Of a stretch of DNA of 64,000 nucleotides, positions 4,601 through 48,760 are shown piece after piece (within the stretch, counting starts at the first letter, position 1; each line of letters begins with the position of its first letter). The DNA is taken from assembly GCA_963755715.1 (NCBI GenBank), contig CAVWLW010000027.1, positions 128,001 to 192,000 on the forward strand. The letters run 5' to 3'. The notes beneath the pieces were generated by a model. The model was not told the origin of the DNA. It was given only the letters and a program-made list of their open reading frames with translations, and did no database searches. The DNA comes from an uncultured delta proteobacterium (lineage in GTDB: Bacteria > Desulfobacterota > Binatia > UBA9968). The position numbers and the translations under genes were made by a program.

Positions 4601-4873
4601 GGGCCGCTGATCTCGACGCCTTACGGCAGCGAAGGACTTGCCGACAAGGTCGGCGCGGCAACCAAACGCACGATCGCCTATCTGGTCGATGGCGTTCGGC
4701 AAGGCCGTTTCTTCATCAACCGCGGCGTCCACTGCGGCCACTGCGACGCGGCGCCGATCTGCCGCAAAAACCATCCGCCGAGCCTGTGGCGCGCCGAGAA
4801 CGATCCGCTGACCGAACCGCATCGCGCTTTACGCGCAAAAGATCCCAATGACGATGAGCCCGAGCCAGATTGA
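1622..4873 (+). CDS. addB: AddB/RexB-like helicase-nuclease subunit (inactive helicase fold plus PD-(D/E)XK nuclease with 4-Cys Fe-S staple)
   Basis: SPTALETYARCPFQFF, RGRMDRID...VIDYK and C-terminal CGHCDAAPIC. No Walker A. Overlaps the downstream UvrD gene. Confidence 0.85.
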   Translation: MQTILGPFNPDLENSLVEEILKYKDADLLSPLLILTPSDLLRRRLKILLSRERRLALLNVQLLTFYQLALRLQAESSGTALELRTDLFLEEALRQIIRTRQPGAEPFAGIEERAGGCAALWQTLRDLRDGLVDPTVALDALGEGHFSQRASERTSQLLVLLRTFQQFCRRQKITDQSDLNRAATEQVPASRFLQQFSQIFYYGFYDLTQIQVDFFHAVARHYPTTLYFPYLSAKPSHDAWRFAERFYERYIQGHNTEPAQELESQGVLPASARLFDDNKERKYGDFPKHWQCHIVSTFGIQDEVAAAAKEILRLAEDCKLQLHEIGVVARSLESYSQVVKDIFHQHRIPLAGTLEEPLVQFPLTKAVILLLNLPAKDFVRSQVIDLLSSPYFQFQNIDGNPASVRPDLWDLATRELAICKGVAEWRRLRRYSHRDLELRQMSDDEEPRKIRIRSVQLICLANLVDTLMADLLRLPDQASWQEYAAAWKDLLKKYLGIAPNTETAPRDPNAEILEILDQLAGLDSVDNRVARNDFSRTFQHWLERSSVTDDRRNRDGVMVLSATAARGLAFRALFVLGMNEGVFPRTIREDAFLRDRDREVLDRDLGYKVSQKLAAFDEEKLLFTLLVGAARERLYCSFQRADDSGRGLAPSWYVDELKRALKEHGRECETINIPRSMTEKTATPPFDRQDLLLPSELAIRLTLEAQDPTALIEATASLPELYRQGRQVVAAIDQSSDRLLPYDGALADFDSYWKHFSKRGPSPTALETYARCPFQFFARHVLGLEPLDHPEETLGPSPAEFGELGHGILHSFYRAWIDAGYFAGKAVTVDMETTLQAVTVRAFADYEENNPVGYPLAWESVKDGLVQLLRQVIAQDLAELSQSGFSPVSLEADVTTRLPPDWPEPLKNLAIRGRMDRIDRKDDALRVIDYKFKFGANRATQDKNLIRAAMRGERLQPPFYYMLAQRWAEEQLLKPLPKTIEADFYYISPRWADGPLISTPYGSEGLADKVGAATKRTIAYLVDGVRQGRFFINRGVHCGHCDAAPICRKNHPPSLWRAENDPLTEPHRALRAKDPNDDEPEPD

Positions 4874-7800
4874 ACTTGCCGACGCCGGTGATCGACAGGT
4901 CGCCACCGCCTCTTTCGATCGCAATCTCGTGGTCACGGCGGGAGCAGGCACCGGCAAAACGACGTTGTTGGTCGATCGCCTGGTTCATTTGCTGCTGCGC
5001 AATCCCCAGCCGCTAAAAATCACCGAGATCGTCGCCCTCACCTTTACTAACAAAGCCGCCGACGAAATGAAGCTTCGGCTGCGTCAACGCCTGCAGGCTT
5101 TTCTCGATGTCCAGCTCGATCGTGAAGCCGCCAACGATGCCGAGGCTAAAACCAAGAGCGACGCTGAAGCGCTGATCGCGCTCTACCAGCTCTCCAAAGA
5201 CGAATTGGACAATCGCATCCATGATGCGCTCAGAAACATGGAACGAAGCGACATCGGCACGATCCATAGCTTCGCCGCCAACTTGCTTCGCCTCTATCCG
5301 CTCGAAGCGGGCGTCGACCCGCAATTTCGTGAGGACGATGGCGCAGCGTTCGACCGGCTTTTCGACGACCACTGGAACTTGTGGTTGGATCAGGAACTTT
5401 CCTTGGACAGCGCGCACGCGGCGGACTGGCAGAAAATTCTCCCTCGCTGCGGCCTCGATCAAATCAAGGCCTTGGCCAAATCGATTGCCGCGGAAAACGT
5501 CGATCTTCGGCAGAACGCTAACCTAGCCAACGCCGTTTTCCCTGCCCTACGCGATTGGTTGGCAAGGCTCGAAGCCAAGGCCGCAGCCTTGATTGAACGT
5601 CATCCCGAGGATCGCCTGAATGAAAAGTTAGTTCGCGCGGCACGTACTGTCCTGAGCGAGTTTAGAAAAGACGGACAGCGCTCGGATACGTTAATGGACG
5701 AATACGCGCTTTTGTCCGATAAGTCGATCAATCGAGATGTTCAGGGCTGGCCTTCCGACGATGTCGCAACAGCTCAAGAGCTCGTGCGCGCCGCCAAGGG
5801 GCTCGTCAAAGTCGACGGCGAATTGACCGCCACGTTCTGGCGCTTGCTTGTTCCCTTCGCCGAGGATTTCCGCGAGCGCTTCATCCGCGAAGGGCATCTA
5901 TCTTTTGACGGCTTACTCGTGCGCGCGCGCAACCTCGTGCGCGACCAAGTGCGCGTACGCGCGGATCTCAAACGACGCTACCGCACTATTCTCATCGACG
6001 AATTTCAAGACACGGATCCGATTCAATATGAGATTCTCCTCTATTTGGCGGAACAAACCGGTCAGATAGCGTTGGACTGGCGTCAAGTTAGAGTCGTTCC
6101 GGGAAAAATATTTGTGGTCGGCGATCCGAAGCAGTCGATCTACGCTTTTCGCCGCGCGGACATCGAAGCCTACCTCGAAGTCGTCGAAAAAATTATCAAA
6201 GCGCAGGATGGCATCGAGTGCCGTCTCACCACCAACTTTCGCAGCAACGCGGCGATCCTGGACGGAGTGAACGGCGCGTTCGAAAACCTCATCCAAGCTC
6301 AAGACGGCGTGCAACCGCCCTACATCGCCATCTATCCGGCGCCCGGTCGAATCACCGAGCCGAGCGACATTCCCAAGCTCTTGGTGCGAAAGATTGTCGC
6401 GGACCGAGACGTCAATGCCGAAACCGCGCGCCATCTGGAAGGTGAAAGCCTGGCGCGCTGGCTAAAGGAGCAGGTCTTAGGCAAAGCCACAATTTTGAAC
6501 ACGCGAGGCGAAAAAGTCCAGGCGCAGCCTAAAGATGTCGCGATTCTGCTGCGCAAGCTCACCGACATCCACGACTACCTAGAACCCTTGCGCCGCCAAG
6601 AAATTCGGTACGTCGTCGAAGGCGAACGCCACTTTTACGCCGCGAAAGAAATCATCGACGCCGTCAACCTGCTGCGCGCCGTAGAAAATCCCCACGATCG
6701 GCTGGCGTTCGTCGGCGTTCTACGCGCGCCTTTGGGCGGGCTCACCGACCAGCAAATTTATGAGCTGCACCGGCAAAACCTGCTCGATTACCGCGCTGCC
6801 GCGAAACTCGCTGGAAAGGATTTTCCACCGACGCTGGTACAGCTCTATGACACGCTGGCGCGCCTACATGATGAAACCCGCAGAATGCCGATTGGCGCCG
6901 CGGTAGCCCATGTATTTGCGACGTTGCCGGTGGAACTGCTGGCGGCATGCTATTTTCACGGCGAACAGGCGGTGGCAAATTTGCAAAAGTTGGCGCAGCA
7001 GGCCGAGTTGCTTGGCCGCGAAGGATTGACCACGCTTAAGGAAGCGATCCGCCAGCTAGAACAACGCGTGCTCGACGTCAAAGATGAAGGCGAAAGCGTG
7101 CTCGCCGAAGAAAACCTCGATGCCGTACGCATCATGAGCATTCACAAATCTAAAGGCTTGGAGTTCCCCATCGTGATTCTAGCCGGCTGCCAAACCGGCA
7201 TCGAGGGCAGACACAGCGCCGCAGCCGAAGCGCTGTTCGATTGGTCGACGGGATTGACCGGCTTACGTATCGGCGCGATTTCGGATCTCGCCGGGCTATA
7301 CATCGCGGAAAAAACCAGGCTGAGAAACGCCGAAGAACAAAAGCGTCTGCTCTACGTCGCTATGACCAGAGCGAGAGAGCATCTAATTATCTCCTGCGCG
7401 CCGAGCGATCGGCGCTCGAGCGGCAGTTTTCTTTCCATGCTCGACGACACCGTGAACCACGGTATCACCGACGCAGAAGAGCCAAAGAGGGTATCGCTCG
7501 GGGCCGGCGTAGTGGAAATCGAAGTCGTCAGCGAAAGACTGACCGCGCCCGGTCGCACAAAAGGCAAATCCAAACGCGTCAAGAAAACAAACCGAGTGGA
7601 GATCCTTCATCGATACTTGGGCGCGCCGCGACGCGCGACTATGAGAAGGCGCAACAAGCCGCGCCGTTTGTCACGCCGACGCTCCTGAAACGGCAAGAGG
7701 AATCATCGACTGAATCCGGCAGCAAAATGAACGGTCAATTCTATCGGCAAACGCCGGCTCTCGTCGTCGGTGATCTTGCGCACCGTTTTCTGCAGAACTG

Positions 7801-8269
7801 GCAGTTCACCAGGGACGTCAAAGAATACAAAGGGCAACTTCACGATTTCATCACGCTCTCACTGCCGAGGGAATTCGCGTCATCCTGCCGAGAGATCGAA
7901 GCCGAGCTCGAAGACATTTTCCAGGCTTTCTTTCGCTCGAAAGTCTACGCCGAGCTCGCCGGCGCACGGATCCTCGGCCGCGAAGTGCCGCTCTTGATGC
8001 CGTGGAACGGCCAGATCATGGAAGGTGTCATCGATTTGATCTACGAAAAAAACGGCTTGCTTTACTTGGCCGACTATAAGACAGATAGGATCACGAAAGA
8101 TCAATTGATCGAAGGCGCGGCGCGCTATAACCGGCAGGCGGAAATCTATTCACAAGCGGTCAAACAGAGTCTCGGACGCGAACTCGCGGCTTTTAAAATA
8201 ATTTTCTTGCGTCTCGGCGAAGCCGTCGAGCTCGGCGCAGAAAAGAATAAGGAGTTATCGCTGTTCTGA
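4848..8269 (+). CDS. addA: AddA-like UvrD/SF1A helicase with C-terminal nuclease, frameshifted near 7590-7635
   Basis: AGAGTGKTT, LIDEFQDT, VGDPKQSIYAFRRAD, NFRS, SIHKSKGLEF and LYVAMTRA in ORF 4848-7688. The nuclease motif EGVIDLIY...ADYKTD continues in ORF 7241-8269. Confidence 0.87.
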
Positions 8270-9041: not shown

Positions 9042-9449
9042 ATGAACGAAGAACGAATAGCTCAAAATTTGGCGGCCGTTGTGAACCATTTTCACAGTGA
9101 GGCGCTGAACGACGTGGAGGCCGCACTTTCGACATTCACCGACGATGTCATTTGGGAGGCACCTGCACCGAACGGTCTTAACCGATCTTTCACGGGGAAG
9201 GAGGCGGTCGAGAGTAATTATCGGCAGCTCTGGGCGTCCATGCGCAATGTGACCTTTCAGCCACTCCAGCGCATCGCTACCGAGGATCGTGTGGTGGATG
9301 ACTGCACGGTTACTTTTGAGGTGGCCAAAGATGGATATTGGCATTTTCCGGTCGGCAGCAAAGTGGAAATGCGACTGGTCCACATCTTCGAGATGCGCGA
9401 CGGAAAGATCGCACGGGAGATCGTTTTCGACATGGGACGTAGCGTCTAG
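9042..9449 (+). CDS. SnoaL/NTF2-like protein
   Basis: FTDDVIWEAP and HIFEMRDGKIAREIVF. AAGGA RBS before ATG 9042. Confidence 0.8.
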   Translation: MNEERIAQNLAAVVNHFHSEALNDVEAALSTFTDDVIWEAPAPNGLNRSFTGKEAVESNYRQLWASMRNVTFQPLQRIATEDRVVDDCTVTFEVAKDGYWHFPVGSKVEMRLVHIFEMRDGKIAREIVFDMGRSV

Positions 9450-9562
9450 TTGGAAGGGCAAGATGATACCGACGACTGCTGGGATCTAGTTCGAGATTGG
9501 GAGCATATTGGCTAAGGTTTAATCTCCATTTAGTTCTTGCTCCTGCCTTCTCGACGGCTCGT

Positions 9563-9592
9563 TTGACTCCCAGTACGCCAGTCGATAATAAT
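9563..9592 (+). promoter_or_regulatory. Putative sigma70 promoter of the cupin-eutA operon
   Basis: TTGACT, 17 nt spacer, TAATAA(T), about 85 nt upstream of ATG 9677. Confidence 0.4.
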
Positions 9593-9676
9593 TGTTACAA
9601 ATCCGCTAGGCCTGAGCACGTGATCTCACGCCGATCTGCAGATTCCAACGAATTATACGAGCAAGAAGGAGGCATT

Positions 9677-10873
9677 ATGGATCATCCCGCTGAGCAATCA
9701 TTTCAGGAACCGACAGATAAAAAGACCCGGGCCGGCTATGGAAAATTTCTCCGGCCGAATACGCCTTACGACAACTTCATGGAGTCGCAGGGCATTCCGA
9801 TTTATCGCGACATCGGCGTTCGGCGCGTGCAGGATCTGCCTCGCAAGCCGTGGAAGCGCATGGGCGGCAACGGCACGTTCATTCAGCTCCTCGGCACCGA
9901 AGGTCTGTGGGGTTGCTACGTCGTCGAGGTCCCCGGCGCCGGCGCGTTGAACCCGGAAAAGCATCTGTACGAAGAGCAGTATCTCGTCGTCGACGGCCGC
10001 GGCACCACCGAGGTTTGGGTCGACGGCAATCCGAAGAAGGTCACGTTTGAATGGCAGAAAGGCTCGATCTTCGCCATTCCGATGAATGCGACGCATCGCA
10101 TCGTCAATGCGACCTCGAGCCCGGCGCTTTTGCTCGCCGGCACCACGGCGCCCAATATTATGAACAACTTTGGCAACGAGGATTTTATCTTCAACTGCCC
10201 CTATAACTTCAAAGACCGTTTCGATCCCAGCGACGACTACTACAAGTACAAAGAAGAAGTCACGCCGGACCCGCTCCGGGGTCTCGCCATGCGCCAGACG
10301 AACATCATTCCCGACGTCATGTCCTGCGAGTTACCCATGGATAACCGGCGCTCGCCGGGTTATCGGCGCATCGAGCCGCATATGGCGGGACAGCAATTCT
10401 ATATGTGGATCGGTCAGCATGAAACCGGCCGTTACTCGAAAGCGCATGCGCATGGCTCCGCGGCAGTGCTGATTTGCCTGAGCGGCAAAGGGTATACCTA
10501 CACGTGGCCGGCAAAATTGGGCACCCATCCCTGGGAAAAAGGCACGACGGAAGAAATCAGACGCCAGGACTATGAACCCGTGGGTATGGTCAGCGCGGCG
10601 CCAATGAGCGGGAACTGGTTTCATGCCCATTTTGGCGCGAGCAAAGAGCCGCTGCGTCTCACCGCCTGGTTCGGCCCCAACGCGCCAGGGCGCGATCGCG
10701 GCAAGCCTGGTGAAAAGGGCATCGACTACGGCGCCATCGACATGAAAGACGGCGGCACGGCGATCCCGTACAACGAAGAAGATCCGTATCTCCGTAAAGA
10801 GTTCGAAGAAACGCTGGCAAGTGTGGGCGCGCAATCGCGCATGGAGCCGGATCTTTACAAGCACTCCTACTAA
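9677..10873 (+). CDS. Bicupin (two cupin domains), putative metalloenzyme
   Basis: Cupin motifs PEKHLYEEQYLVVDGRG...THRIVN and SKAHAHGSAAVLICLSGKG...NWFHAHFG. GGAGG RBS before ATG 9677. Confidence 0.8.
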   Translation: MDHPAEQSFQEPTDKKTRAGYGKFLRPNTPYDNFMESQGIPIYRDIGVRRVQDLPRKPWKRMGGNGTFIQLLGTEGLWGCYVVEVPGAGALNPEKHLYEEQYLVVDGRGTTEVWVDGNPKKVTFEWQKGSIFAIPMNATHRIVNATSSPALLLAGTTAPNIMNNFGNEDFIFNCPYNFKDRFDPSDDYYKYKEEVTPDPLRGLAMRQTNIIPDVMSCELPMDNRRSPGYRRIEPHMAGQQFYMWIGQHETGRYSKAHAHGSAAVLICLSGKGYTYTWPAKLGTHPWEKGTTEEIRRQDYEPVGMVSAAPMSGNWFHAHFGASKEPLRLTAWFGPNAPGRDRGKPGEKGIDYGAIDMKDGGTAIPYNEEDPYLRKEFEETLASVGAQSRMEPDLYKHSY

Positions 10874-10888
10874 GAATCTGTCTCAGCG

Positions 10889-10935
10889 TCTAGGGTCTAG
10901 AGTTTGGGGGTTAACGCCAGACTCTAGACTCTGGA
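10889..10935. repeat. Heptamer-periodic inverted repeat (GTCTAG[AG] units)
   Basis: tctagggtctagagtttgg ... ccagactctagactctgga forms an imperfect hairpin between the cupin and eutA-like genes. Confidence 0.65.
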
Positions 10936-10968
10936 ATCCAAACGATCTTAGCTGCCCAAAGGAATTTC

Positions 10969-12453
10969 ATGGCCACCGCACCTCGAGGTTCGTTTTCCAA
11001 TGCCAACCGCCACATGCAGGAGGAAGAAAAGCTTCAGCTCACCAGCGTCGGTGTCGACATCGGCTCTTCAACATCGCACCTGGTTTTTTCCCGGCTGGAA
11101 CTGACCCTCGAAGGTTCGCGTTATCGCGTCACCAAACGCGATGTCTTGAACGAATCGCAGATCCTGCTGACGCCTTATGTCGACGATACGAGAATCGACG
11201 TGGAAGCGCTGGAAACTTTTATCAACGAACAGTACAAGACCGCCAAGATCCGGCGTGAGGATGTCGACACCGGCGCGCTCATTCTCACCGGCGTCGCCGT
11301 GCGCCGGCGCAATGCTCGCGCCATCGCCGACCTCTTCGCTGAGGAGGCGGGCAAATTCGTGGCGGTAAGCGCAGGCGACGGTTTGGAGGCCACGATGGCG
11401 GCTCACGGCTCGGGCGCGGTGGCGCACTCAGAAAAAATGGGCGGCGTCGTCCTGAACATCGATGTCGGCGGCGGCACCAGCAAGTTTGCAATCTGTAATA
11501 ACGGCAAGGTTCAGGAAGTTTCCGCCATCGACGTAGGCGCACGCCTGCTCGCCTTCGACAAAGACGGCGCCATCGTGCGTATCGAGGAAGCCGGCCGCAA
11601 GCATGCCGGCTGGGCCGGATTTTCAGTGGCGCTCGGCGAAAAAATCGCCGAAGCAAACCTGCGCAAAATGGTCTCGGGCATGGTAGATAAACTATTTGCC
11701 ATGTTGAAGCCGCAATCCATCACCGAAGATATTAAAGAGCTTCTGCGCCTGTCGCCGCTGACCTACAAAGGGGAAATCGATTGCGTAATGTTTTCCGGCG
11801 GCGTGTCGGAGTTCATCTACAATCGCACCAAGACCAGTTTCGGCGATCTCGGACCATGGATCGCAGAAGAGGTGCACAAGCGCACGGGCGATTTGGGACT
11901 CCTCGTCATGGAACCCAACGCGCGAATTCGCGCCACGGTCATAGGCGCCTCGCAATATACCGTGCAGGTGAGCGGCAACACAGTCTTCATTTCGCCGGAA
12001 GACGCCGTTCCCGTGCGCAACGTCGCGGTCGTCGCGCCGGAGTTTCCGTTAAACGAAGATGATTTCACCAAAGATGCGGTCCGCGACGCGCTGCTAAATG
12101 CGTTACGACGCTTGGACTTACTACATGGACGCCAACCCGTAGCCGTTGCGTTTCATTGGGACGGCTCAGCGACATTCTCCCGTTTGCAGTCTTTCTGCAG
12201 TGGCGTCGCCGAAGGACTCAAAGATATCTTCGTCAAAGGCCACCCGCTAGTTTTGGTGAACGACGGCGACATCGGCGGTATTGTTGGATTACATTTTCAA
12301 GAAGAACTGCAGATGCAGACCCCGATCATCTCCATCGATGGCATCGCCCTCAGCGATTTCGACTACATCGACATCGGCGCGCTGATTCAATCGTCCGGCG
12401 CAGTGCCGGTCGTGATCAAATCCCTGATCTTTCCAGCTTCACCGCAACAATAA
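10969..12453 (+). CDS. eutA: EutA-family (ethanolamine ammonia-lyase reactivase-like) ASKHA ATPase
   Basis: SVGVDIGSSTSHLVFS, TGALILTG...RRNA, AGDGLEATMAAHGSGA, VLNIDVGGGTS, FSGGVSE, IRATVIGA and DYIDIG...VPVVIKSLIF match EutA signatures. Confidence 0.88.
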   Translation: MATAPRGSFSNANRHMQEEEKLQLTSVGVDIGSSTSHLVFSRLELTLEGSRYRVTKRDVLNESQILLTPYVDDTRIDVEALETFINEQYKTAKIRREDVDTGALILTGVAVRRRNARAIADLFAEEAGKFVAVSAGDGLEATMAAHGSGAVAHSEKMGGVVLNIDVGGGTSKFAICNNGKVQEVSAIDVGARLLAFDKDGAIVRIEEAGRKHAGWAGFSVALGEKIAEANLRKMVSGMVDKLFAMLKPQSITEDIKELLRLSPLTYKGEIDCVMFSGGVSEFIYNRTKTSFGDLGPWIAEEVHKRTGDLGLLVMEPNARIRATVIGASQYTVQVSGNTVFISPEDAVPVRNVAVVAPEFPLNEDDFTKDAVRDALLNALRRLDLLHGRQPVAVAFHWDGSATFSRLQSFCSGVAEGLKDIFVKGHPLVLVNDGDIGGIVGLHFQEELQMQTPIISIDGIALSDFDYIDIGALIQSSGAVPVVIKSLIFPASPQQ

Positions 12454-12487
12454 AAAGGCCGGGAAAGGTGACTCCTTCCCGGCTTTC
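12454..12487. terminator. Probable bidirectional intrinsic terminator
   Basis: aaaagGCCGGGAAAGG-tgact-CCTTCCCGGCtttc between convergent genes. Confidence 0.7.
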
Positions 12488-12521
12488 AATGGCTTGAACG
12501 ATTTGCACCCGATGGAGTTTT

Positions 12522-19906: not shown

Positions 19907-20884
19907 ATGAGCAAGCGTGTCGCGTTTCCCCTGTTCTTTTCGTTAGCCCTATTCGTAATTACGCCCGCGACATCGCGCGGCATTCAGGAAATTAAAATCG
20001 CCTCGACGGGTCCCGGCGTTAGCACGCTGCCGCTCGAAATGGCCACACGAAAGGGTTTTTTCCGCGATGAGGGCCTCGATGTTCTGACGATCACGATGAG
20101 AACGAATATCGCGGTCAACGCGCTTCTAACCCGCAGCGTCGACTATGCTACGCCGAGCACTTCGGCGATCAAGGCCGCCACTGCCGGATTGCCGGTCAAA
20201 TTGATCGCTGTATTGTTGGGGCGCCCCGATTACTTTCTCACGGTAAAGAAAGAGATTAGATCGCTAAAGGACTTGAAGGGTAAACGCGTTGCCATTGGCA
20301 CTTTCGGCGCTGCCGCCGATTTGGCGCTGCGCACGGTCGCGAAACAGGATGGCTTGGACCCCGATCGCGATCTCATTCGTTTACAGATGGGCGGAGCCGC
20401 TTCTCGCTACGCTGCTCTGATCGCCGGAAGCGTAGACGCAACGATTTTAACGCTGCCGTATAACTTGCAAGCGGAAAAGGCCGGTTACAAAGACTTGCTC
20501 TGGTTCGGCGAGCGCATGGAATTGCCCTTATCCGGGCTTGTAGCCCGCGACGAAACTATTCAAAAAAATCCAAAGCAAGTTCTCGCGGTCGTGCGCGCGG
20601 TCTTTCGCGCCATGAGCTTTGCAGGCGCCAATCGCGAAGAAACCACGCAAATAATCGTCAACTGGCTCAAAGTAGACCAGGAAGTCGCCGCCAAAAGTTA
20701 CGACCTCGGCAAAAACAGTTGGTCCGCCGGCGGAATCGTCTCGGACGCAGCGGTGAAAGTATTGGTCGATCAAGCGATATTGGAGATCAAGGGCAAAGAC
20801 GCCGTCCCGCTCGACAAAGTCCGTACCTGGAGCTTCGCCGAACAAGCGCGGCGGGAGTTGGCGAACGCAGGAATAGCGCGATAA
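19907..20884 (+). CDS. NMT1/SsuA-like ABC solute-binding protein
   Basis: Signal peptide, KGFFRDEGLDV, DLKGKRVAIGTFG and ALIAGSVDA. Confidence 0.85.
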   Translation: MSKRVAFPLFFSLALFVITPATSRGIQEIKIASTGPGVSTLPLEMATRKGFFRDEGLDVLTITMRTNIAVNALLTRSVDYATPSTSAIKAATAGLPVKLIAVLLGRPDYFLTVKKEIRSLKDLKGKRVAIGTFGAAADLALRTVAKQDGLDPDRDLIRLQMGGAASRYAALIAGSVDATILTLPYNLQAEKAGYKDLLWFGERMELPLSGLVARDETIQKNPKQVLAVVRAVFRAMSFAGANREETTQIIVNWLKVDQEVAAKSYDLGKNSWSAGGIVSDAAVKVLVDQAILEIKGKDAVPLDKVRTWSFAEQARRELANAGIAR

Positions 20885-28719: not shown

Positions 28720-29487
28720 CTAGCGGTACATCCCGCTTGGATCGAGCTCTTCGCGGATCAAGCGCAGCTCTTCTACCGATGGTGCGGAAACCTCCTCGAT
28801 CTTAGCGGCCAGCCGCAGTGGCCAGCCGACTTCTTCCTGCACATTCTTTTCGGTTATGCCGGGATAGAGCGCGTTCAGTTGCATCTCGCGCTCGGCATTG
28901 TCGAAGTTCAAGATCGCCATGTCGGTAATCACGATCTCGGGTCCGCCGCCGGGAAGGCCGAGACGGGAGCGGCTGTCCCCGCCGGTCAGATGACCCGGGC
29001 TGGTGACGAAGTCAAGCTTTTCGACGAATGCCCGGCGTTTGAGACGCATGATCATGAACGTTCGTTGAGCGTTGGTGGCGATCTCGCAGGCGCCGCCGCT
29101 CCCCGGCAGGCGCGTCTTGGGTTTGGCATAGTCGCCGATCACCGTGGAATTGAGATTGCCGTGTTTATCGATCTGGGCTCCGCCAAGCAGCGCGATTTCG
29201 ACCAAGCCCCGTTGCAAATACAAGCCAAATAGATCCGCCATCGATACCACCGAGACGGCGCCGCTGACGAGTGTCGGATCGCCGATGGAAAGCGGCAACC
29301 GCTCCGGTCGCGCGCCGTAAACACCGGACTCATAAATCAGCTCCATATCCGGAGCGACGGTGACGCGCGCCAAGTTGCAGGCGATATTGGGGAGACCGAC
29401 GCCGACGAATACGGTGCGCGCGCCCGTCAACATGCGCGCCGCCACTGCGATCATCATCTCCGACGCCGAATAAGCGGGATCGCTCAT
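28720..29487 (-). CDS. pcaJ: 3-oxoadipate CoA-transferase subunit B (GctB/CatJ type)
   Basis: FVGVGLP, LIYESG, LGGAQID..GNLNSTVIG and RLPGSGG. Lies in the pca cluster. Confidence 0.82.
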   Translation of the reverse strand: MSDPAYSASEMMIAVAARMLTGARTVFVGVGLPNIACNLARVTVAPDMELIYESGVYGARPERLPLSIGDPTLVSGAVSVVSMADLFGLYLQRGLVEIALLGGAQIDKHGNLNSTVIGDYAKPKTRLPGSGGACEIATNAQRTFMIMRLKRRAFVEKLDFVTSPGHLTGGDSRSRLGLPGGGPEIVITDMAILNFDNAEREMQLNALYPGITEKNVQEEVGWPLRLAAKIEEVSAPSVEELRLIREELDPSGMYR

Positions 29488-30416
29488 CGATACCTCCCGT
29501 AATCGACCGACGGCGCCGGATAAGGCTCCGGCTTGAGCTTGTCAAAATGGGCTTGCCCAATTTTGCCCACGTAAGCGCCGAAATTTTCCAGGCCGTAAAC
29601 CCATTCGTCGAGCCACGCGACGACCGCCGCGTGATCCTGCGAAAGTTTATCCCAGGCAAGATAGGACTCGTTGTCTCGGTCGTAATAACCCTGAACGTAC
29701 GAAGGATGCGCGCCATACGGTTCGTGCACCACCGCATCGACGATCAAGCCGGGAATCAAAGTACGATTGGGATCGGCGCGGATCACCGATTCGTCAACCA
29801 ACTCTTCCACCACGACGATGACACGCTTCGAAGCGAAAGCTACTTCTTTCTGCATGCCGAGGAGCCCCCACAATTGCGTATTGCCCTGCCGATCAGCGCG
29901 TTGGGCGTGCAGGATAGCGACGTCGGGGTTGAGCGGCGGCACCACAGCGATCTTACCCGTGCCGTAGGGATCGTCGATAAGTTTAATTAACGGATTGGCC
30001 GTTAGCATGTCTGAGCCGACGTAGCTCCGTAGGGCGAAAAACGGCATGCGCGCCGCGCCGGCGGCATAACGGCCGACCAGCCCGTAGTGCGAATACTCTT
30101 CCAGCTCCAATGGAAGGGGGACACTTTTCTCCACAGCGCGGCGAATGCAGTAAAGCGAGCCGACGCCCGGATTGCCCATATAGCTGAAAATTAATTTTTT
30201 CGCCGCCCCGGCCGCGATCATCTGATCGTAGATCAGATCGGGAGTCATCCGGATCAAGGTCAAATTGCGCCGGCGCTGCCGAATGATCTCATGGCCCGCC
30301 GCGAAACAGATGAATCCGGTGAAACCTTCGATGGCGATCGAGCAGTCATCCGCCACGTGCGTGGCGATGGCCTCTCGCATCGATACGACCTTATCGGTTT
30401 TTGCTGTGTTGCTCAT
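29484..30416 (-). CDS. pcaI: 3-oxoadipate CoA-transferase subunit A (GctA/CatI type)
   Basis: EGFTGFICFAAGHEIIRQ, RMTPDLIYDQMI, GNPGVGSL and AHPSYVQGYYDRD. 4-nt overlap with subunit B. Confidence 0.82.
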   Translation of the reverse strand: MSNTAKTDKVVSMREAIATHVADDCSIAIEGFTGFICFAAGHEIIRQRRRNLTLIRMTPDLIYDQMIAAGAAKKLIFSYMGNPGVGSLYCIRRAVEKSVPLPLELEEYSHYGLVGRYAAGAARMPFFALRSYVGSDMLTANPLIKLIDDPYGTGKIAVVPPLNPDVAILHAQRADRQGNTQLWGLLGMQKEVAFASKRVIVVVEELVDESVIRADPNRTLIPGLIVDAVVHEPYGAHPSYVQGYYDRDNESYLAWDKLSQDHAAVVAWLDEWVYGLENFGAYVGKIGQAHFDKLKPEPYPAPSVDYGRYR

Positions 30417-30435
30417 TTTCTGAAATAAGATTCTT

Positions 30436-31785
30436 TCAAACTAAAAATTTATTGGCGCTTTCAAGCACTCGATCGAGCATTCTGTTCGACTCGCCGACGT
30501 AGTTCTCCGGCTTGCCCAGAACCTGCCAGTCGACCGTGCCGTCGCCAATTTCGCCCTTCGATAAATCACGCACGACATCAATCAGCGGTTTGCCGTCAGC
30601 CACCGCCACCGCGCACGCTTTTTTTACCAGCTCTTCGGCCTTAAGCCGCGGCATCAGCTTGGCAAGGGCAAAGACCGCGGCTTCCGCGAGAATGACGTCG
30701 TTAGCGCGGGCGATATTGGCCCTCATTGCAGTGGAGTCCACTTGCAGATTCCTCGCCAGATAGAGCGCATGCTGGAGCGCGCCGCCGGTGAGAAGCATCA
30801 TTTGCGGCAGGGTCAGCCATTCCATCTGCCAACCATGCGTGGCGCGCTCTTGTTCCTGGATCTGCGCCTGGTGCATTGCTGACAACAAGGAAGCATTCGT
30901 GCGTGCCGCGGCGACGATCAGCTCGCTCGTGATCGGGTTGGCCTTCTGCGGCATCGTGCTGCTGCCGCCGCGGCCTCTCTCCGACGACTCACCGATCTCA
31001 CCGACTTCAGTCTGCGCCATGAGAATAATATCCTGCGCCATCTTGCCGAGCGTTCCCGTGACGAGACTCAGCCAGCTCGCAAACTCAACAAATGAATCGC
31101 GCTGCGCATGCCAAGGCATCGCCGGGACGCCTAATTTGAGCTCCTTAGCCAATTCTTCCGCAACGGCCAAACCCTTATCGCCCAGAGCCGCCAATGTCCC
31201 GGCGGCGCCGCCGAACTGCACGACGAGCAGGCGCGGCTGGATTTCCTCGAGACGTTGCAAGTGGCGCACAAGCGGCGCCAGCCAATTCGCGACCTTCAAG
31301 CCGAAAGTCACCGGCAACGCCTGCTGCCCGTGTGTGCGAGCGGCTAGGATCGTATTTCGATGCCGATCGGCCAGCGCGCTCAAGTGGCGCACCACCTCTT
31401 GGAGCCTCGTCTTGAATGACTTGATCGCCGCTCGAAGCTGCAAGACACAAGCGGTATCCATGATGTCCTGCGTGGTCGCGCCCCAGTGAACGAATGACGC
31501 CGCATCAGCGCTCACTTGTTTACGCAGCTCTTGAACCAACGCGATGATCGGAAAACCCGAACGCACCGTCCCCTTCGCCAGCGCAGCGACGTCAATCTTT
31601 TCTGCTTGAACATGGGCTATCTGCTCAGCCGCGTTTGTGGGGATGACGCCGGCGCGAGCCTCAGCACGAGCTAAAGCAATCTCGACTTCGACGAGAGCGC
31701 GCACCAAGGCCGCATCGCTGAGCAGCGTCGCGATCTCGTCATCGCTGAAGAGCGGACCCAAAATGGCTGAATCGAGCGCCGTCAT
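30436..31785 (-). CDS. pcaB: 3-carboxy-cis,cis-muconate cycloisomerase
   Basis: HWGATTQDIMDT and fumarate-lyase signature GGSSTMPQKANP. pca context. Confidence 0.9.
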   Translation of the reverse strand: MTALDSAILGPLFSDDEIATLLSDAALVRALVEVEIALARAEARAGVIPTNAAEQIAHVQAEKIDVAALAKGTVRSGFPIIALVQELRKQVSADAASFVHWGATTQDIMDTACVLQLRAAIKSFKTRLQEVVRHLSALADRHRNTILAARTHGQQALPVTFGLKVANWLAPLVRHLQRLEEIQPRLLVVQFGGAAGTLAALGDKGLAVAEELAKELKLGVPAMPWHAQRDSFVEFASWLSLVTGTLGKMAQDIILMAQTEVGEIGESSERGRGGSSTMPQKANPITSELIVAAARTNASLLSAMHQAQIQEQERATHGWQMEWLTLPQMMLLTGGALQHALYLARNLQVDSTAMRANIARANDVILAEAAVFALAKLMPRLKAEELVKKACAVAVADGKPLIDVVRDLSKGEIGDGTVDWQVLGKPENYVGESNRMLDRVLESANKFLV

Positions 31786-31815
31786 CGGATAAACCTAATT
31801 TGATAATTCTGTTTC

Positions 31816-31913
31816 TGTCATTCCGAACGAACGTGAGGAATCTTTCTCCAGTCCTAACGACACACCGTCTCAACGTTTAAAAAGAAAGATTTCTCCTTTC
31901 AGTCGAAATAACA
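31816..31913. repeat. Intergenic palindromic element, TGTCATT...GAATCT / AGATTTCTC...GTCGAAATAACA family
   Basis: The arm gaaagatttctc-N6-gtcgaaataaca recurs at 41104-41133. Related half-copies lie at about 33358, 42590 and 45520. Confidence 0.7.
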
Positions 31914-31976
31914 GAAGCTAAGTGATGAACGCCCGAACCATCACCCGCACGAGTACAAAATCGGCTTTCGTGTCCT

Positions 31977-32008
31977 CACTCCAACACTCCACTACTCCAT
32001 CATTCCAA
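31977..32008. repeat. Octamer tandem repeat (ACTCCA core)
   Basis: cactccaa cactccac tactccat cattccaa. Same family as 48761-48839. Confidence 0.7.
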
Positions 32009-32023
32009 TTTGCCCGCGCCCCC

Positions 32024-32596
32024 TCACATATCAAAGAAAACTGTTTCGTTGTCTCCCTGTAAGCGAATGTCGAAGCGATAAACGGTCTTGCCGTTTTCCA
32101 TTCCGGGCGACGCAATCAAAGTCTGCCGCCGCTTTTTGTTTTTGATCGAGTTCAGCACCGGATCGCTCGCATTGGCCGGCTCGTCGGCGAAATACAGCCG
32201 CGTGTACGCATGCACCAGCATACCGCGCGCAAAAACGACAACGTTGATGTGCGGCGCTTGTACCGATTCATCATTTCCCGGCACCGGACCGGGCTTGACG
32301 GTTTCAAAGGTGTAAAAACATTTTTCGTCGGTGCCTGAACGGCCCCAGCCGGTGAAAGTCGGATCGAGAGGTTTTTCTTGTTTGTCGTCGGGATGGTTGT
32401 AGCGGCCGTAGGTGTTGGCTTGCCAAATCTCGACCATGACATCGGGAATCGCCACGCCGTCGCCGTCGAAGACTTGCCCCTCAATGCGAATCCGCTGGCC
32501 TTGGGTCGCGTCCGTCGCCATGACATTCATCGGCTTGCGCGTGAGTCCGATGGAATAGAACGGCCCGACCGTCTGTGACGGGGTTTGCTTCCTCAT
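32024..32596 (-). CDS. pcaG: Protocatechuate 3,4-dioxygenase alpha subunit
   Basis: TPSQTVGPFY, EIWQAN, QAPHINVVVFARG and YRFDIRLQG..ETVFFD. Confidence 0.95.
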   Translation of the reverse strand: MRKQTPSQTVGPFYSIGLTRKPMNVMATDATQGQRIRIEGQVFDGDGVAIPDVMVEIWQANTYGRYNHPDDKQEKPLDPTFTGWGRSGTDEKCFYTFETVKPGPVPGNDESVQAPHINVVVFARGMLVHAYTRLYFADEPANASDPVLNSIKNKKRRQTLIASPGMENGKTVYRFDIRLQGDNETVFFDM

Positions 32597-33306
32597 CTAG
32601 ATTCCTCAAACGGCGTGGCCTTTCTGCCGCGCAGCACGATGTCGAAGCGATAGCCGAGTGCAAACTCGGGCTCGCTCACGTCATGAGCATAGCTCGACAT
32701 CAGACGCTCGCGCCCGCTCTTGGTCGGCACCGAATTCAAAATCGGATCGAGTGGAATCAATGGATCGCCGGGAAAGAAAAATTGCGTTACCAAGCGGGTG
32801 ACAAAGCTCGGCCCGAATAAGGAGAGATGAATATGGGCCGGCCGCCACGCGTTGGGATGATTGAGCCACGGATAAGCGCCGGGCTTGATCGTCAAGTATC
32901 GATACTCGCCTTTTTCGTCGGTCACGCAGCGCCCCGCGCCGGTGAAGTTCGGATCGAGCGGCGCGTTGTGTTGATCGACGGGGTGGCGATAGCGCCCGGC
33001 CGCGTTGGCCTGCCAGATCTCGATCAGCGTATTCGGCACCGGCTTATCGTCTTCGTCCAAGACCCGGCCGACTACGATAATGCGCTCGCCCATCGCCTCT
33101 TTTCCAGTGTCGGCATCGCGCGTGAGATCGTTCTCGCCGGGCTCCAGTTTGATATCGCTGAACAACGGCCCGGTGATTTCCGACAAAGTCTGCTGGATCG
33201 GCACGAGCCTTTTTAACGGCCCGCGTTTAACGGAAGACCCGTAGTCTTTAAACGTATAAGGCGGATGAGATTTCCAGTCGCGCGGATTGTATTCTTGAAT
33301 GCGCAT
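32593..33306 (-). CDS. pcaH: Protocatechuate 3,4-dioxygenase beta subunit
   Basis: SEITGP, EIWQANAAGRYRH, TIKPGAYPW.NH.NAWRPAHIH and YRFDIVLRG. Likely start MRIQEY at 33306. Confidence 0.95.
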   Translation of the reverse strand: MRIQEYNPRDWKSHPPYTFKDYGSSVKRGPLKRLVPIQQTLSEITGPLFSDIKLEPGENDLTRDADTGKEAMGERIIVVGRVLDEDDKPVPNTLIEIWQANAAGRYRHPVDQHNAPLDPNFTGAGRCVTDEKGEYRYLTIKPGAYPWLNHPNAWRPAHIHLSLFGPSFVTRLVTQFFFPGDPLIPLDPILNSVPTKSGRERLMSSYAHDVSEPEFALGYRFDIVLRGRKATPFEESR

Positions 33307-33394
33307 AAGAGCTTCCTTCTTTGGTCGATTACGATCCGACAACAGAAGAGGAGTGTCGATCGCTGAACGCAGTGAAGGATCTCGACCTGAATTT

Positions 33395-33784
33395 TCACTT
33401 TTTACCTTCAGCCTCCATCTCCTTATACGTCCGTTTGGCGATAGCGAAAGCCGAGTTCGCCGCCGGCGCACCCGCATAGACTGCGACTTGCAGAAGAATT
33501 TCTTTGACTTCTTCTTTCGTGACTCCGGTGTTGCGGGTCGCACGAATATGCGCGCCAAGCTCTTCAAGTCTACCCAATGACGCGAGCATGGCGATAGTCA
33601 ACATGCTGCGCGTCCGCCTTTCGAGTCCGGGCCTGCTCCACACCGCCGCCCAGGCGTGCTCCGTCACGTAACGCTGCCAGTCTTCGTCGAACTCCGTTTT
33701 GTTCGCTTCCGCGCGCGCGACGTAGTCGGCGCCGAGCACCGCTTTACGCGTCGCCATGCCCTTGTCAAATAAATCGTCAGACAA
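33395..33784 (-). CDS. pcaC: 4-carboxymuconolactone decarboxylase
   Basis: GMATRKAVLG..YV, AWAAVWSRPGL and LLQVAVYAGAPAAN. Confidence 0.92.
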   Translation of the reverse strand: MSDDLFDKGMATRKAVLGADYVARAEANKTEFDEDWQRYVTEHAWAAVWSRPGLERRTRSMLTIAMLASLGRLEELGAHIRATRNTGVTKEEVKEILLQVAVYAGAPAANSAFAIAKRTYKEMEAEGKK

Positions 33785-34571
33785 TTTGCACCTCCTGAAA
33801 GAACCGCAACATTTTCTGAGTCAGAATGTCCGGCTGTTCGATACACGGCAGATGGGCGGCGTTTTCAATCAAGGAAAACTGCGCGCCCGAAATCAATTCC
33901 GCGAGCTCGCGGCCAAGCTCCGGCGGCGTCGCGATATCTTGTGCGCCGCACAGAACCAACGTCGGACAGCGGACTGTCGCGAGGGTCGCGCGAAAATCCG
34001 CGTCTCGCAACGCGCAACAAGTTCCAATATATCCTTCCACCGAGGTTTGCAGCAGCATGTTCGAGTAACCGCGAATATCGGCGGAGCGGCGCGCCCGAAA
34101 CGTTGGCGAAAACCACCGCTCCATCGTCGGCGATTCAAGCGCTTGGAGACCGCCTGCTCGCACTATTTCGATACGTTGCCGCCAAGATTCGATGGAGCCG
34201 ATCCGCGCCCCGGTATCGCACAGAACCAGAGCGCGCACACGCTTCGGGTAATTCAATGCGAACGCCTGCGCGATCAAGCCGCCTACGGATACACCGCATA
34301 GCACCGCCTGTTCGATTTCGAGAGCATCGAGCACGCCGGCAACGTCTTGCGCGAGATCGTTGATGGAATAAGGCGACGGTGGCGCATCGCTTAAGCCATG
34401 TCCTCGTTTATCGTAGCGAACTACTCTGAAATTTTCGTCCAGGCAATTGGTTACGTCATCCCAAATCCTAAGGTCCGTGCCGAGAGAATTGGCGAACAGC
34501 AGCGCTGGCTTGCTCTTCGCCCCCGAGCTCACATAATGGTGGACGTTATTGTTAATCCGAGCGAAGGCCAC
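33777..34571 (-). CDS. pcaD: 3-oxoadipate enol-lactonase
   Basis: FANSLGTDLRIWD, YDKRGHG, GVSVGG nucleophile elbow and AHLPCIEQP. Confidence 0.92.
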   Translation of the reverse strand: MAFARINNNVHHYVSSGAKSKPALLFANSLGTDLRIWDDVTNCLDENFRVVRYDKRGHGLSDAPPSPYSINDLAQDVAGVLDALEIEQAVLCGVSVGGLIAQAFALNYPKRVRALVLCDTGARIGSIESWRQRIEIVRAGGLQALESPTMERWFSPTFRARRSADIRGYSNMLLQTSVEGYIGTCCALRDADFRATLATVRCPTLVLCGAQDIATPPELGRELAELISGAQFSLIENAAHLPCIEQPDILTQKMLRFFQEVQIV

Positions 34572-38280: not shown

Positions 38281-39162
38281 ATGATAGCAAAGATCAAACA
38301 TGTGGCGTTTATGAGTCACAACGCGCCCCGGCTCTGCCGATTCTATGAGTGCTTGTTTGGGCTAACTCGGGCAAGGGCAGATACCTCCCCGGCATCCGAG
38401 GAAGAGTTTGCCAAGCGTTTCGGCAATCCACTTTTATCGACCAAACGCGTTGCCAAACCTTACGATGCAACGGTGATAGCGGGCGATGGCAACGTTGGGG
38501 TGGCGTTCCTGCGCCGGCGACCGGGATATCCAGCCGGCATAGATCACTTTGGCATCGAGGTGGACGACCTGGACCGCGTTTTCAGCCGCTACAAGGAAAA
38601 ATATCCCGCAGTGGGAGTGGTGAAGAGACCAAGCAACCGACCTTTTGCGTCTTTCAGCTCACACGATCCTGAAGGCCATCTGTTCGACCTGAGCCAGCCC
38701 GGTTTGGATAACGTCCGCGGCGTTTGGGCCGAGTCCGATCGGGAGCAAGATCGCCATATCAAGCACCTGACGATACGCGCCATCAATCCGGGTGCGTTGG
38801 CGCGCTTTTATGTGGACGTCTTCGAATTTAAAGAAGAGGAAAAAGCGTTGGAAGATCCGAATTTTTACCTCACCGACGGCAAAGTCACGTTGATCCTGAC
38901 GCCGTGGAAAATCGAGGACTATCACGGCGCCGAACACCGGGGTCCTGGACTCGACCACGTCGGATTCAAGGTAGAAAACATGGAGATGTTTAGAAAAGAC
39001 TTCGATGTTTTGACCAGCGTGGATCCTGAGTGGATGACTCCGAAGGCTCCCAATCAGGCTTCTGAACACGATGTCGTACTGCGACTACTCTCGGCTTGTC
39101 GTTACGGCCGACATCAACTGGCCGATCCGGACGGGAATTTCATAGACGTAACCGATCAATAA
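38281..39162 (+). CDS. VOC/glyoxalase family protein with two domains, paralog of 18629-19441
   Basis: IKHVAF, GIDHFGIEV, HDPEGHLFDLSQ, YLTDGKV, GLDHVGFKV and LADPDGNFIDV. Confidence 0.85.
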   Translation: MIAKIKHVAFMSHNAPRLCRFYECLFGLTRARADTSPASEEEFAKRFGNPLLSTKRVAKPYDATVIAGDGNVGVAFLRRRPGYPAGIDHFGIEVDDLDRVFSRYKEKYPAVGVVKRPSNRPFASFSSHDPEGHLFDLSQPGLDNVRGVWAESDREQDRHIKHLTIRAINPGALARFYVDVFEFKEEEKALEDPNFYLTDGKVTLILTPWKIEDYHGAEHRGPGLDHVGFKVENMEMFRKDFDVLTSVDPEWMTPKAPNQASEHDVVLRLLSACRYGRHQLADPDGNFIDVTDQ

Positions 39163-39209
39163 ATTGTTTGGCGAGAATAACGATGCCGCTCACTTTTCGG
39201 AGGACCTGG

Positions 39210-40204
39210 ATGAGCATGGAAAGATGTATCGCTACTTTAATCGCGCTTTCATTCATCCTGTTAAGTCCCACGGCTGAAACTGCGTTTTCTGCCGATAAAG
39301 CGGACAAACTAACGCAGGTCCGCATGGGCTTGGCAGCAAGAAGCACGACTTCCATGCCCTTCTTCGTTGCCAAGGAGCGCGGCTTTTTCCGCGAGGAAGG
39401 ATTAGACGTCGAGCTGATCGTCATGCAGGCGATTCAAACCATTCAGGCGACGATGGGGAAAAGCTTACAATTTGCCTCAGCAACCGGCTCGGCGGTGAGC
39501 GCCGCGGTCAACGGCGCCGACATCAAAGTGATCTTGGCCGTCACGGACCGGCCGTCGTTCGATCTCATCGCTCAGCCGAATATTACCAGCATCCAACAAT
39601 TGCGCGGCAAGAAAATCGGCACCGGCGGTGTCGGCTCTTTGGCGGAAATTCTCTCGCGCCGCATTTTGACCGCTAACAACGTTCGCCCCGAAGAGGTGAC
39701 TATTCTGGCTACCGGCCCAAGCCACGTCACCTACATGTCTTTGAAAGCGAAAGTGATCGATGCCGCGCCGCTGCAGATGCCCCTGACCTTCACCGCGCAA
39801 GACGAAGGTTTTCGCAAGCTCGCAGCCGCCGGGCGACGTCTATCAATCCGTGCAGGGCGGTCTCGCGACGACCAAAGCCGTCCTAACGGAACAGCCCGAA
39901 ATGGTGACCAAAGTAGTCCGCGCCATGCTGCGTGCGATTCGGCTTATCAAAAACGACAGAAAGTACGGCATCGAATTCATCAAAGGACCGTGGCTCGATC
40001 TCGGCAAAGAGCGCGGACAAGATCGCCGCGCGCGTCTATGACGTCGCGGCGCCGGATCTTTTGGAAAACGGCATAGTCAGCGACGAAATTCAGCGGCAGA
40101 TGATCGCAGATGCGTCATCGCGGATAAAGCCGGCGCATCCGGTGCTGCCCGAGCAGGCTTTCGACTTTAGCATCGCCCGTAAGGTCAGCGCGACGTTGAA
40201 GTAG
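39210..40204 (+). CDS. NMT1/SsuA-like solute-binding protein, frameshifts near 39835 and 40010
   Basis: Signal peptide, RGFFREEGLDVELI, LRGKKIGTGG and C-terminal FDFSIARKV. Confidence 0.8.
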
Positions 40205-46719: not shown

Positions 46720-46800
46720 AAAGGATAAAGGCAAAGGGATAAAGGATAAAAAAGCGAGTCCCAGTAAATTTTATCCTTTTGCCTTTATCCTTCATCCTTT
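46720..46800. repeat. Heptamer-periodic inverted repeat (AAGGATA / TATCCTT) between convergent genes
   Basis: aaaggataaaggcaaagggataaaggataaaa ... ttttatccttttgcctttatccttcatccttt. Confidence 0.8.
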
Positions 46801-47768: not shown

Positions 47769-47782
47769 AAGGCTCCGTCCTT

Positions 47783-48749: not shown

Positions 48750-48760
48750 CACCCCGCCCC

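Follow-up and report, generated by a model that had tools for sequence, protein, structure and literature searches.

EutA of Escherichia coli and Salmonella is the reactivase of ethanolamine ammonia-lyase: it drives the ATP-dependent release of damaged cobalamin from EutBC, and to our knowledge the ATP-dependent reactivation of a B12 enzyme is the only function known for its family. The diol and glycerol dehydratase reactivases DdrAB and GdrAB use an ATPase of the ASKHA/Hsp70-like type, which opens the partner enzyme and swaps the dead cofactor. HgdC and HadI, the activators of 2-hydroxyacyl-CoA dehydratases, are also ASKHA ATPases acting on a partner enzyme. Ring-cleaving dioxygenases can have helpers too: XylT-type ferredoxins, small [2Fe-2S] proteins encoded beside catechol 2,3-dioxygenase, restore its inactivated metal centre by reduction, free of ATP. 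Gentisate and salicylate 1,2-dioxygenases are bicupin, three-His Fe(II) ring-cleaving enzymes, and we know of no gentisate dioxygenase with an ATPase partner. We report here a locus of an uncultured delta proteobacterium (Binatia; assembly GCA_963755715.1) where a EutA-like ATPase gene lies directly downstream of a bicupin gene. It is located in a 64,000 nucleotide stretch of DNA, hereafter the window (contig CAVWLW010000027.1, positions 128,001 to 192,000).

As judged from sequence, the two genes make up a conserved, self-contained module consisting of a predicted bicupin metalloenzyme and a non-canonical ASKHA ATPase of the EutA family (Table 1). The original prediction for this locus had proposed that a EutA clade was re-partnered with a B12-independent cupin, and our analysis supports this structural part: the adjacency recurs in other genomes, the partner bicupins form a clade, and EutB was found neither in relatives of the source organism nor in other-phylum genomes that carry the pair. 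The roles suggested with it (reactivase, metal-exchange chaperone or kinase-like subunit) are treated below as hypotheses.

As had been claimed, the ATPase is a genuine, full-length EutA homolog. It matches Pfam PF06277 (EutA) over profile positions 2-474 of 475, with an E-value of 1.1e-117 and 394.3 bits, well above the gathering score of 27. Its alignment with E. coli EutA covers the whole length, C-terminal domain included, at 33% identity. The DIGSSTS and DVGGGTS motifs are present, and residues D30, G32, D165, G167-169, T170 and G277-G278 are invariant among 36 relatives. Phosphate-1, phosphate-2 and adenosine motifs, shared with EutA, and a two-lobed fold place the protein in the ASKHA superfamily. 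In the model (predicted local distance difference test score, pLDDT, 85.6), the ASKHA core spans residues 22-336 and a further alpha/beta domain extends to about residue 485. Some database entries start at M16 (position 11014). Like EutA, the ATPase is encoded beside the enzyme that it presumably serves.

The structural neighbours of the model are generic ASKHA proteins: Ppx/GppA, FtsA, PilM, pantothenate kinase and the 2-hydroxyacyl-CoA dehydratase activators. For residues 22-336, Z-scores of 17.8 with Ppx/GppA and 15.3 with FtsA were obtained, and a search of the PDB with the single sequence returned weak Ppx/MreB matches only. The top Foldseek match is a 2-hydroxyacyl-CoA dehydratase activator (1hux, E-value 9e-10, template modelling (TM) score 0.57 on the target); however, HgdC and HadI measure about 260 aa, lack the C-terminal domain and bridge a [4Fe-4S] cluster via cysteines, whereas the window ATPase has no invariant Cys. 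Comparison with DdrA (2d0o) gave a Z-score of 11.4 and a root mean square deviation of 4.2 over 245 residues, no better than many ASKHA proteins. DdrAB and GdrAB belong to a different family, and the window locus has no gene for a beta subunit; the likeness lies in the mode of action that we propose below for the window ATPase. XylT, to which the ATPase has no homology, is a parallel only as a helper encoded beside its enzyme.

Several features set the window ATPase apart from EutA proper. It scores below the cut-offs of all four NCBIfam EutA equivalogs, NF007991-NF007994 (331.2/598, 256/769, 222/952 and 207/799 bits), its partner is a cupin, and it does not group with EutBC-linked EutAs. E. 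coli EutA starts right at the first ASKHA strand, whereas in the window clade this strand is preceded by a conserved peptide of about 20 residues, disordered in the model, with a consensus of roughly G-x-F-F-S-N-x-x-R-H/S-x-x-E-E-D-E-I. Other EutA-like clades (the C69, C32, C18 and C51 paralogs of the source genome and the L063-L100 relatives) have acidic, His/Asp-rich N-termini, such as H-E-G-H-D-D-D ... H-P-M-W; these are candidate metal-binding tails, absent from E. coli EutA.

The original prediction called for a EutA phylogeny. In a EutA-family tree of 90 rows with E. coli as outgroup, the window ATPase falls in a clade of 63 rows (Shimodaira-Hasegawa-like approximate likelihood ratio test, 100), of which 41 are bicupin-adjacent, 20 are non-adjacent and 2 undecidable. 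Within it, the Binatia subclade of the window ATPase is adjacent in 19 cases out of 19. Elsewhere in the tree, none of the 15 C69-type EutAs is adjacent (14 non-adjacent, one without flank), and the C18-type pair (G000 C18, L042) is. A more careful tree returned the same label counts as the quick one. In a further careful tree, a branch with 100/100 support splits 38 EutA-like proteins from 7 EutBC-linked EutAs of Enterobacteria, Fusobacteria, Firmicutes and Haloarchaea.

The partners show a matching specificity. A bicupin tree was built with 73 rows, 50 from the loci and 23 from the source genome. EutA-adjacent bicupins form one clade of 44 rows, delimited on the quick tree and supported at 100/100 in the careful one. 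Forty of them are labelled adjacent; for the others, one ATPase is cut by a contig end, one bicupin is a tandem duplicate, and in two cases the distance is 1.9-2.3 kb. The source genome has a single member of this clade, that of the window; the six paralogs that come next to it in the tree are all orphans. Another, small bicupin clade (C18 type; G000 C18, L042) pairs with the C18-type ATPase clade. The sample is biased, as loci were found via the ATPase and orphan bicupins come mainly from one genome, and two independent checks address this bias. Firstly, in 5 of 5 genomes where an ATPase of the clade is not beside a bicupin, a bicupin 60-71% identical to the window's is encoded elsewhere. Secondly, a full-length EutA-family gene was found in 3 of 151 Burkholderiales genomes (a set that includes the unpublished genome G076): two have EutB immediately downstream, and the third, without EutB, has a bicupin immediately upstream and is the sole one of the 151 to encode this bicupin. 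We conclude that the pairing of bicupin and ATPase is not due to chance.

In the Burkholderiales set, 142 of the 145 genomes with EutA matches had weak, partial ASKHA cross-matches only (E-value about 1e-6, profile positions 132-267). Pfam EutA matches in B. subtilis, Caulobacter, Thermus and Deinococcus, considered as cases of EutA without EutBC, were rejected after this observation.

Neither eutB or eutC nor any cobalamin or microcompartment family was detected among the 57 open reading frames (ORFs) of the window that were scanned, in line with the initial description. The search was extended to the full assembly (93.6% complete; 7.4 Mb in 76 contigs), where EutB and EutC gave 0 matches; a eutBC elsewhere in the genome, which would have spoken for a canonical EutA, was thus not found. 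Nor did any of 41 genomes from the same order yield EutB (a tally including the unpublished genome G005), though all of these have EutA-family matches, and the 5 other-phylum carriers of the pair were likewise negative. Could the ATPase reactivate another adenosylcobalamin enzyme encoded elsewhere, its place beside the cupin being functionally meaningless? The precedent of the family, known only as B12-enzyme reactivases, would fit, and the source genome does have one methylmalonyl-CoA mutase-family gene (C74:26596-28134). However, this gene is far from every EutA paralog, no B12 enzyme lies beside any of the five, and five EutA paralogs would face one mutase. A diol dehydratase large subunit had no match in the source genome, in a search whose control also matched nowhere. 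As this explanation would also leave adjacency, partner-clade specificity and genome co-occurrence unaccounted for, we regard it as highly improbable.

The original prediction stood or fell with conservation of the cupin adjacency. An alignment of the five EutA paralogs served as query against one genome per species; we analysed the best 80 loci, scoring adjacency with a profile of the source genome's bicupins. In 42 of them, the EutA-like gene has a bicupin gene as its immediate neighbour in the same orientation: by label, 19 are Binatia and 'Deltaproteobacteria', 17 Pseudomonadota (Alpha, Beta) and 6 Chloroflexota. Four loci had no flanking sequence. When all neighbouring ORFs were clustered, the bicupin was the only family recurring across phyla (34 loci). 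The next families occurred in 15 loci at most: a TctC-type receptor (15), an ABC-type protein and an antisense ORF artefact (11-12), and an alpha/beta-hydrolase (9). Pfam scans of chosen subsets of 48, 22 and 58 neighbouring ORFs gave a heterogeneous and mostly catabolic picture around the pair: Amidohydro_2, a LigXa-type Rieske oxygenase with its ferredoxin, class II aldolase, RraA-family protein, FAA hydrolase, UbiD, alpha/beta-hydrolases and TctC transporters. Several loci have two bicupins for one ATPase. Across 39 pairs, identities to the two window proteins co-vary (Spearman 0.81), a correlation to which shared ancestry contributes.

The source genome (G000) has five full-length EutA paralogs, plus a contig-end fragment probably duplicating one of them. 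Three adjoin a bicupin: the window's, C18 (with a bicupin on each side) and C32. For C51, a bicupin is found 2 kb downstream, beyond two Haem_oxygenas_2 genes, and for C69 there is none within 17 kb. In the C69 locus (G000:C69:94781-112202; L017), the EutA paralog is divergent to genes for a DUF4175 protein, a TPR/peptidase-MA protein and a MoxR AAA+ ATPase, a context kept in 11 Binatia-type loci. Bicupins occupy about 26 loci of the genome (27 tblastn places; 29 ORF matches, 23 of them full length), and the family has 9-29 copies per genome in the source genome and five carriers. The nearest paralog of the window bicupin (55% identity at the N-terminus) is spread over three or four frames, and another has an in-frame TGA; the loci concerned, G000:C33:256625-257758 and G000:C35:11334-12422, may be pseudogenes or assembly errors.

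The pair is also found in cultured rhizobia; Sinorhizobium mexicanum and Phyllobacterium zundukense are root-nodule isolates. EutA matches in a plasmid collection were bimodal: four, in Sinorhizobium and Phyllobacterium records, had 52-53% identity, and the other 22 had 27-31%. The bicupin is carried by the same four records. Six of the 22 low-identity cases were opened, and all six had eutB and eutC adjacent. Counting the two Burkholderiales cases, canonical EutAs were beside EutB in 6 of 6 plasmid-borne and 2 of 2 Burkholderiales instances. On the Phyllobacterium zundukense plasmid NZ_CP104971.1 (444910-449292; L103), bicupin and EutA-like genes are followed by a convergent HoxN/NixA nickel/cobalt transporter gene, then by NikR. 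The orthologous Sinorhizobium locus lacks transporter and NikR, and in a Burkholderiales metagenome-assembled genome (L088) the pair is preceded, at a distance of 1.2 kb, by a NicO-family gene.

What is the bicupin? The ORF extends from 9497 to 10873 (+), and we place its start at the ATG at 9677, which is preceded by GAAGGAGG; the resulting length of 398 aa is also that of the public predictions P0001 and P0002. The two-cupin architecture and the motifs quoted in the original prediction were confirmed. Pfam Cupin_2 matches residues 85-153 (E-value 5.8e-9); for the second barrel, no Pfam family had its best stretch there at E ≤ 0.01, and it was the AlphaFold2 model (pLDDT 93.5, predicted TM score 0.92, 58 homologs in the alignment) that showed two beta-barrels. 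Whole-length matches to solved bicupins, over residues 8-365 with Z-scores of 17-20, agree with this architecture. The motifs are EKHLYEE (94-100), THRIVN (139-144), KAHAHG (255-260) and WFHAHF (314-319). In the C-terminal barrel, the site H257-x-H259...H316-x-H318 is nearly universal in the family: H257 and H259 occur in all 73 sequences, H316 and H318 in 71. The invariant His257, His259 and His316, plus His318, are the probable ligands of the catalytic metal. The N-terminal barrel has a second, Glu-His-Glu-His site (E94, H96, E100 and H140), kept in the partnered clade (39-44 of 44) and degenerate in other family members. An insertion (282-290) and 42 signature residues, mostly in the C-terminal half, are further peculiar to the partnered clade.

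The family is small and has no given name. In a database of 1.84 billion entries, 285 cluster representatives match at E ≤ 1e-30, a number that rises to 983 at E ≤ 1e-10. Family members are labelled 'cupin domain-containing protein' or with other generic cupin names; the ESM Atlas also returned 'cupin domain-containing' clusters only, and Foldseek generic bicupins (TM 0.43-0.45). No match was found in the PDB with the single sequence. With a profile, the best solved relative was the gentisate 1,2-dioxygenase 3bu7 (E-value 4e-10, over short stretches), whose AHRH metal motif aligns with the AHAH of the bicupin. The best whole-length structural matches were gentisate and salicylate 1,2-dioxygenases as well (2phd, Z 19.9; 3bu7, Z 19.7; 2d40, Z 19.1), and the three-His arrangement of these enzymes, His-x-His...His, is present in the barrel. 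However, identity is about 10%, and in the window protein the invariant His site belongs to the C-terminal barrel. Oxalate decarboxylase and seed globulins score within about 2 Z units of the dioxygenases, so that the fold alone does not settle the class. No NCBIfam model of gentisate or salicylate dioxygenase matched at E ≤ 0.01, and the sole NCBIfam match, to 5-aminosalicylate 1,2-dioxygenase (same enzyme class), reached 17.5 bits for a cut-off of 650, so that sequence does not make the bicupin a member of the family. It is a distant relative of the gentisate/salicylate 1,2-dioxygenases. The window itself is rich in aromatic catabolism genes, with five Amidohydro_2 genes, a Rieske protein and glyoxalase-fold proteins. 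Because of this kinship, of the C-barrel His residues and of the catabolic neighbours, we infer that the bicupin is most likely an oxygen-dependent metalloenzyme of aromatic breakdown, a ring-cleaving or related dioxygenase.

Table 1. Position in the window of the two genes and of the sequence elements around them
Feature	Coordinates	Strand	Remarks
Clade-1 bicupin gene	9677..10873	+	398 aa; N-barrel site E94-x-H96-x3-E100...H140
EutA-like ASKHA ATPase gene, non-canonical clade	10969..12453	+	494 aa
Sigma-70-like promoter candidate, TTGACT-18 nt-AATAAT	9563..9592	+	10/12 matches
Ribosome-binding site GAAGGAGG	9665..9672	+	4 nt 5' of bicupin ATG; read from sequence
Intercistronic stem-loop	10889..10935	+	19-pair stem between bicupin and ATPase genes
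G+C-rich hairpin	12458..12483		between convergent ATPase and Amidohydro_2 genes; T-run on minus strand

The module had also been described as bounded by a promoter-like element and a terminator. The promoter-like site exists, but by itself it is no better than chance, as one such site was found in 5 kb against 2.7 ± 1.5 in shuffled sequences. The hairpin after the ATPase gene exists as well; its T-run is on the minus strand, so that it scores as a terminator of the convergent amidohydrolase gene rather than of the ATPase gene (the plus strand 3' of it reads TTTCAATGG). Between the two genes, the 95 nt intergenic stretch folds at -38.2 kcal/mol, and its stem-loop is not an intrinsic terminator since it has no T-run. 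Strong hairpins are found at the same place in 13 of 17 loci (besides the window: L022-L026, L033, L041, L045, L052, L075, L080 and L098), with stem sequences unrelated between lineages. Intercistronic hairpins often lower the dose of the downstream gene, and this one may have a role in mRNA stability or gene dosage.

Soil RNA data cover both genes, with contigs from four libraries (4 studies); two of these contigs (10738-11014 and 10822-11012) run across the intergenic region, which fits a single transcript. Contigs start at 9502-9581, with none at 9300-9413 and none over most of 12378-12491, although such contigs cannot define transcript starts or ends. The two genes are probably on one transcript; that the RNA libraries may contain DNA counts against it. 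At position 10885, in the intergenic region, the contigs of all four runs are one base short, by strain variation or assembly error.

What, then, does the ATPase do? We tentatively favour, at slightly less than even confidence, a dedicated ATP-dependent maturation or reactivation factor that would load or swap the metal of the bicupin, by analogy with the known reactivases. The ATPase would bind the bicupin and expose its buried metal site for loading of the proper metal (iron, nickel or cobalt) or for exchange of a wrong or oxidised one. Physical contact between the proteins, action of the ATPase on the cupin rather than the reverse, and the metal and substrate concerned are presumed here. 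This dedicated-helper model is the simplest because a true EutA homolog is tied to one bicupin clade across phyla while the other neighbours vary. Hints of an accessory factor come from the intercistronic hairpins, the loci with two bicupins per ATPase, the conserved N-terminal peptide and the His/Asp-rich tails of the sister clades; the HoxN/NixA and NikR genes of Phyllobacterium and the NicO gene of L088 are a hint towards metal. A broader and more doubtful version of this analogy sees in the EutA family general ATP-driven enzyme reactivases: the ATPase might pry open the cupin barrel so that a kinetically trapped metal, possibly nickel or cobalt, is inserted or exchanged.

A number of observations weigh against a dedicated helper. 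The fold of the ATPase is no closer to reactivases than to other ASKHA proteins, as the Z-scores with Ppx/GppA and DdrA show. No metal-binding site is visible in it, since the clade lacks both a tail rich in His (its 63 rows have 0-3 His ahead of the first ASKHA motif) and an invariant Cys (36 relatives). The nickel link concerns 2 of the 45 pair-bearing loci; in the source genome, NicO matches are confined to contig C1 and NikR to C75, and no bicupin is close to either. Nickel and iron cupins such as acireductone dioxygenase and quercetinase have no known need of a chaperone, and about 20 other bicupin paralogs of the source genome have no adjacent ATPase and apparently manage alone. In 34 of the 80 loci there is no adjacent bicupin (5 of these have one within 5 kb). 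Some EutA-like genes lacking a bicupin adjoin instead an aldo-keto reductase and an amidase, or an alpha/beta-hydrolase. Among 12 longer homologs, no bicupin-EutA fusion was found, and four proteins of 880-898 aa (in the P0391-P0394 and P0399-P0402 set) join an N-terminal EutA-like part to an MFS_3 transporter. With such neighbours and fusions, the EutA-like family is not tied to cupins alone. The MFS_3 fusion with a source name is labelled Pseudonocardiaceae; the same set contains four canonical EutA-EutB fusions of about 907 aa.

Alternatively, the ATPase might itself be a small-molecule enzyme, a kinase, an ATP-coupled hydrolase or a carboxylase-like protein, acting on the substrate or product of the bicupin in a consecutive step. 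Its nearest structures mix phosphatases, cytoskeletal proteins, kinases and enzyme activators, the MFS_3 fusions fit small-molecule handling, and the surroundings are catabolic, from Amidohydro_2 and the LigXa-like Rieske oxygenase to class II aldolase and TctC transporters. The reductase, amidase and hydrolase neighbours of the bicupin-less genes also speak for it. However, EutA, the only characterised relative, is a protein-directed reactivase, and homology to it runs through the C-terminal domain; the association with a specific bicupin clade over four phylum-level groups, with the rest varying, is more typical of a protein pair. Two bicupins per ATPase and the intercistronic hairpin also go against a pathway enzyme. 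We consider this main alternative unlikely, though it deserves the most serious attention after the helper model.

The MFS_3 fusions bring up a further possibility, namely that the ATPase works with a membrane transporter and hands on an imported metal, metal chelate or substrate, the bicupin being one of several recipients. MFS genes are found beside EutA-like genes in Dehalococcoidia and Beijerinckiaceae loci, and the nickel/cobalt transporter genes near the pair in Phyllobacterium and L088, like the His/Asp-rich N-termini of other clades, would suit a link with transport. However, most pair-bearing loci, the window included, have no adjacent transporter of these kinds, and the MFS_3 fusion proteins are only 42-44% identical to the window ATPase. 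A role in transport is in our opinion quite improbable, and it overlaps with the metal-loading version of the helper model.

Other features of the window and its surroundings deserve a brief description. Positions 28720-34571 carry a complete-looking protocatechuate branch of the beta-ketoadipate pathway, with genes for 3,4-dioxygenase alpha/beta, cycloisomerase, an enol-lactonase-like hydrolase, CoA-transferase A/B and a MarR regulator. NMT1/THI5-like ABC solute-binding proteins are extremely expanded: they make up 9 of 53 window ORFs (19907-20884, 39096-40076, 44480-45469, 46799-48752, 50854-51714, 53876-54919 and 57184-58176), and several hundred ORFs of the source genome match one Phyllobacterium binding protein at E < 1e-5. 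Upstream of the module, an AddA-like helicase-nuclease gene (4848-8269) appears split in two overlapping frames, 4848-7688 and 7241-8269; its L022 homolog is a single ORF of 1181 aa with UvrD and PD-(D/E)XK domains, and the split reflects a frameshift or an assembly error.

A full-text literature search, largely outside subscription journals and so not proof of absence, found no publication on a bicupin-EutA pairing; in that literature, the name EutA also designates an unrelated ectoine protein. This suggests that the module, a EutA-family ATPase re-partnered with a B12-independent cupin enzyme, has not been described before. In automatic annotation, these ATPase genes are named 'ethanolamine ammonia-lyase reactivating factor EutA', although no such lyase was found in the organisms concerned. 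This name is probably mistaken throughout the superclade, whose members are found in Binatia, Chloroflexota and Proteobacteria of soil.

The helper question is directly testable because the pair is present in cultured, tractable Sinorhizobium and Phyllobacterium. If the ATPase does service the bicupin, ATP-driven enzyme reactivation would reach beyond cobalamin enzymes, and the pair would help to understand how the right metal reaches the buried site of a cupin. Such a function would also point to an uncharacterised dioxygenase family, present in many copies per genome and probably important for the turnover of aromatic carbon in soil. Should EutA-family proteins be reactivases in general, the module would be the first ATP-dependent system known to be dedicated to maturing or repairing a cupin dioxygenase.

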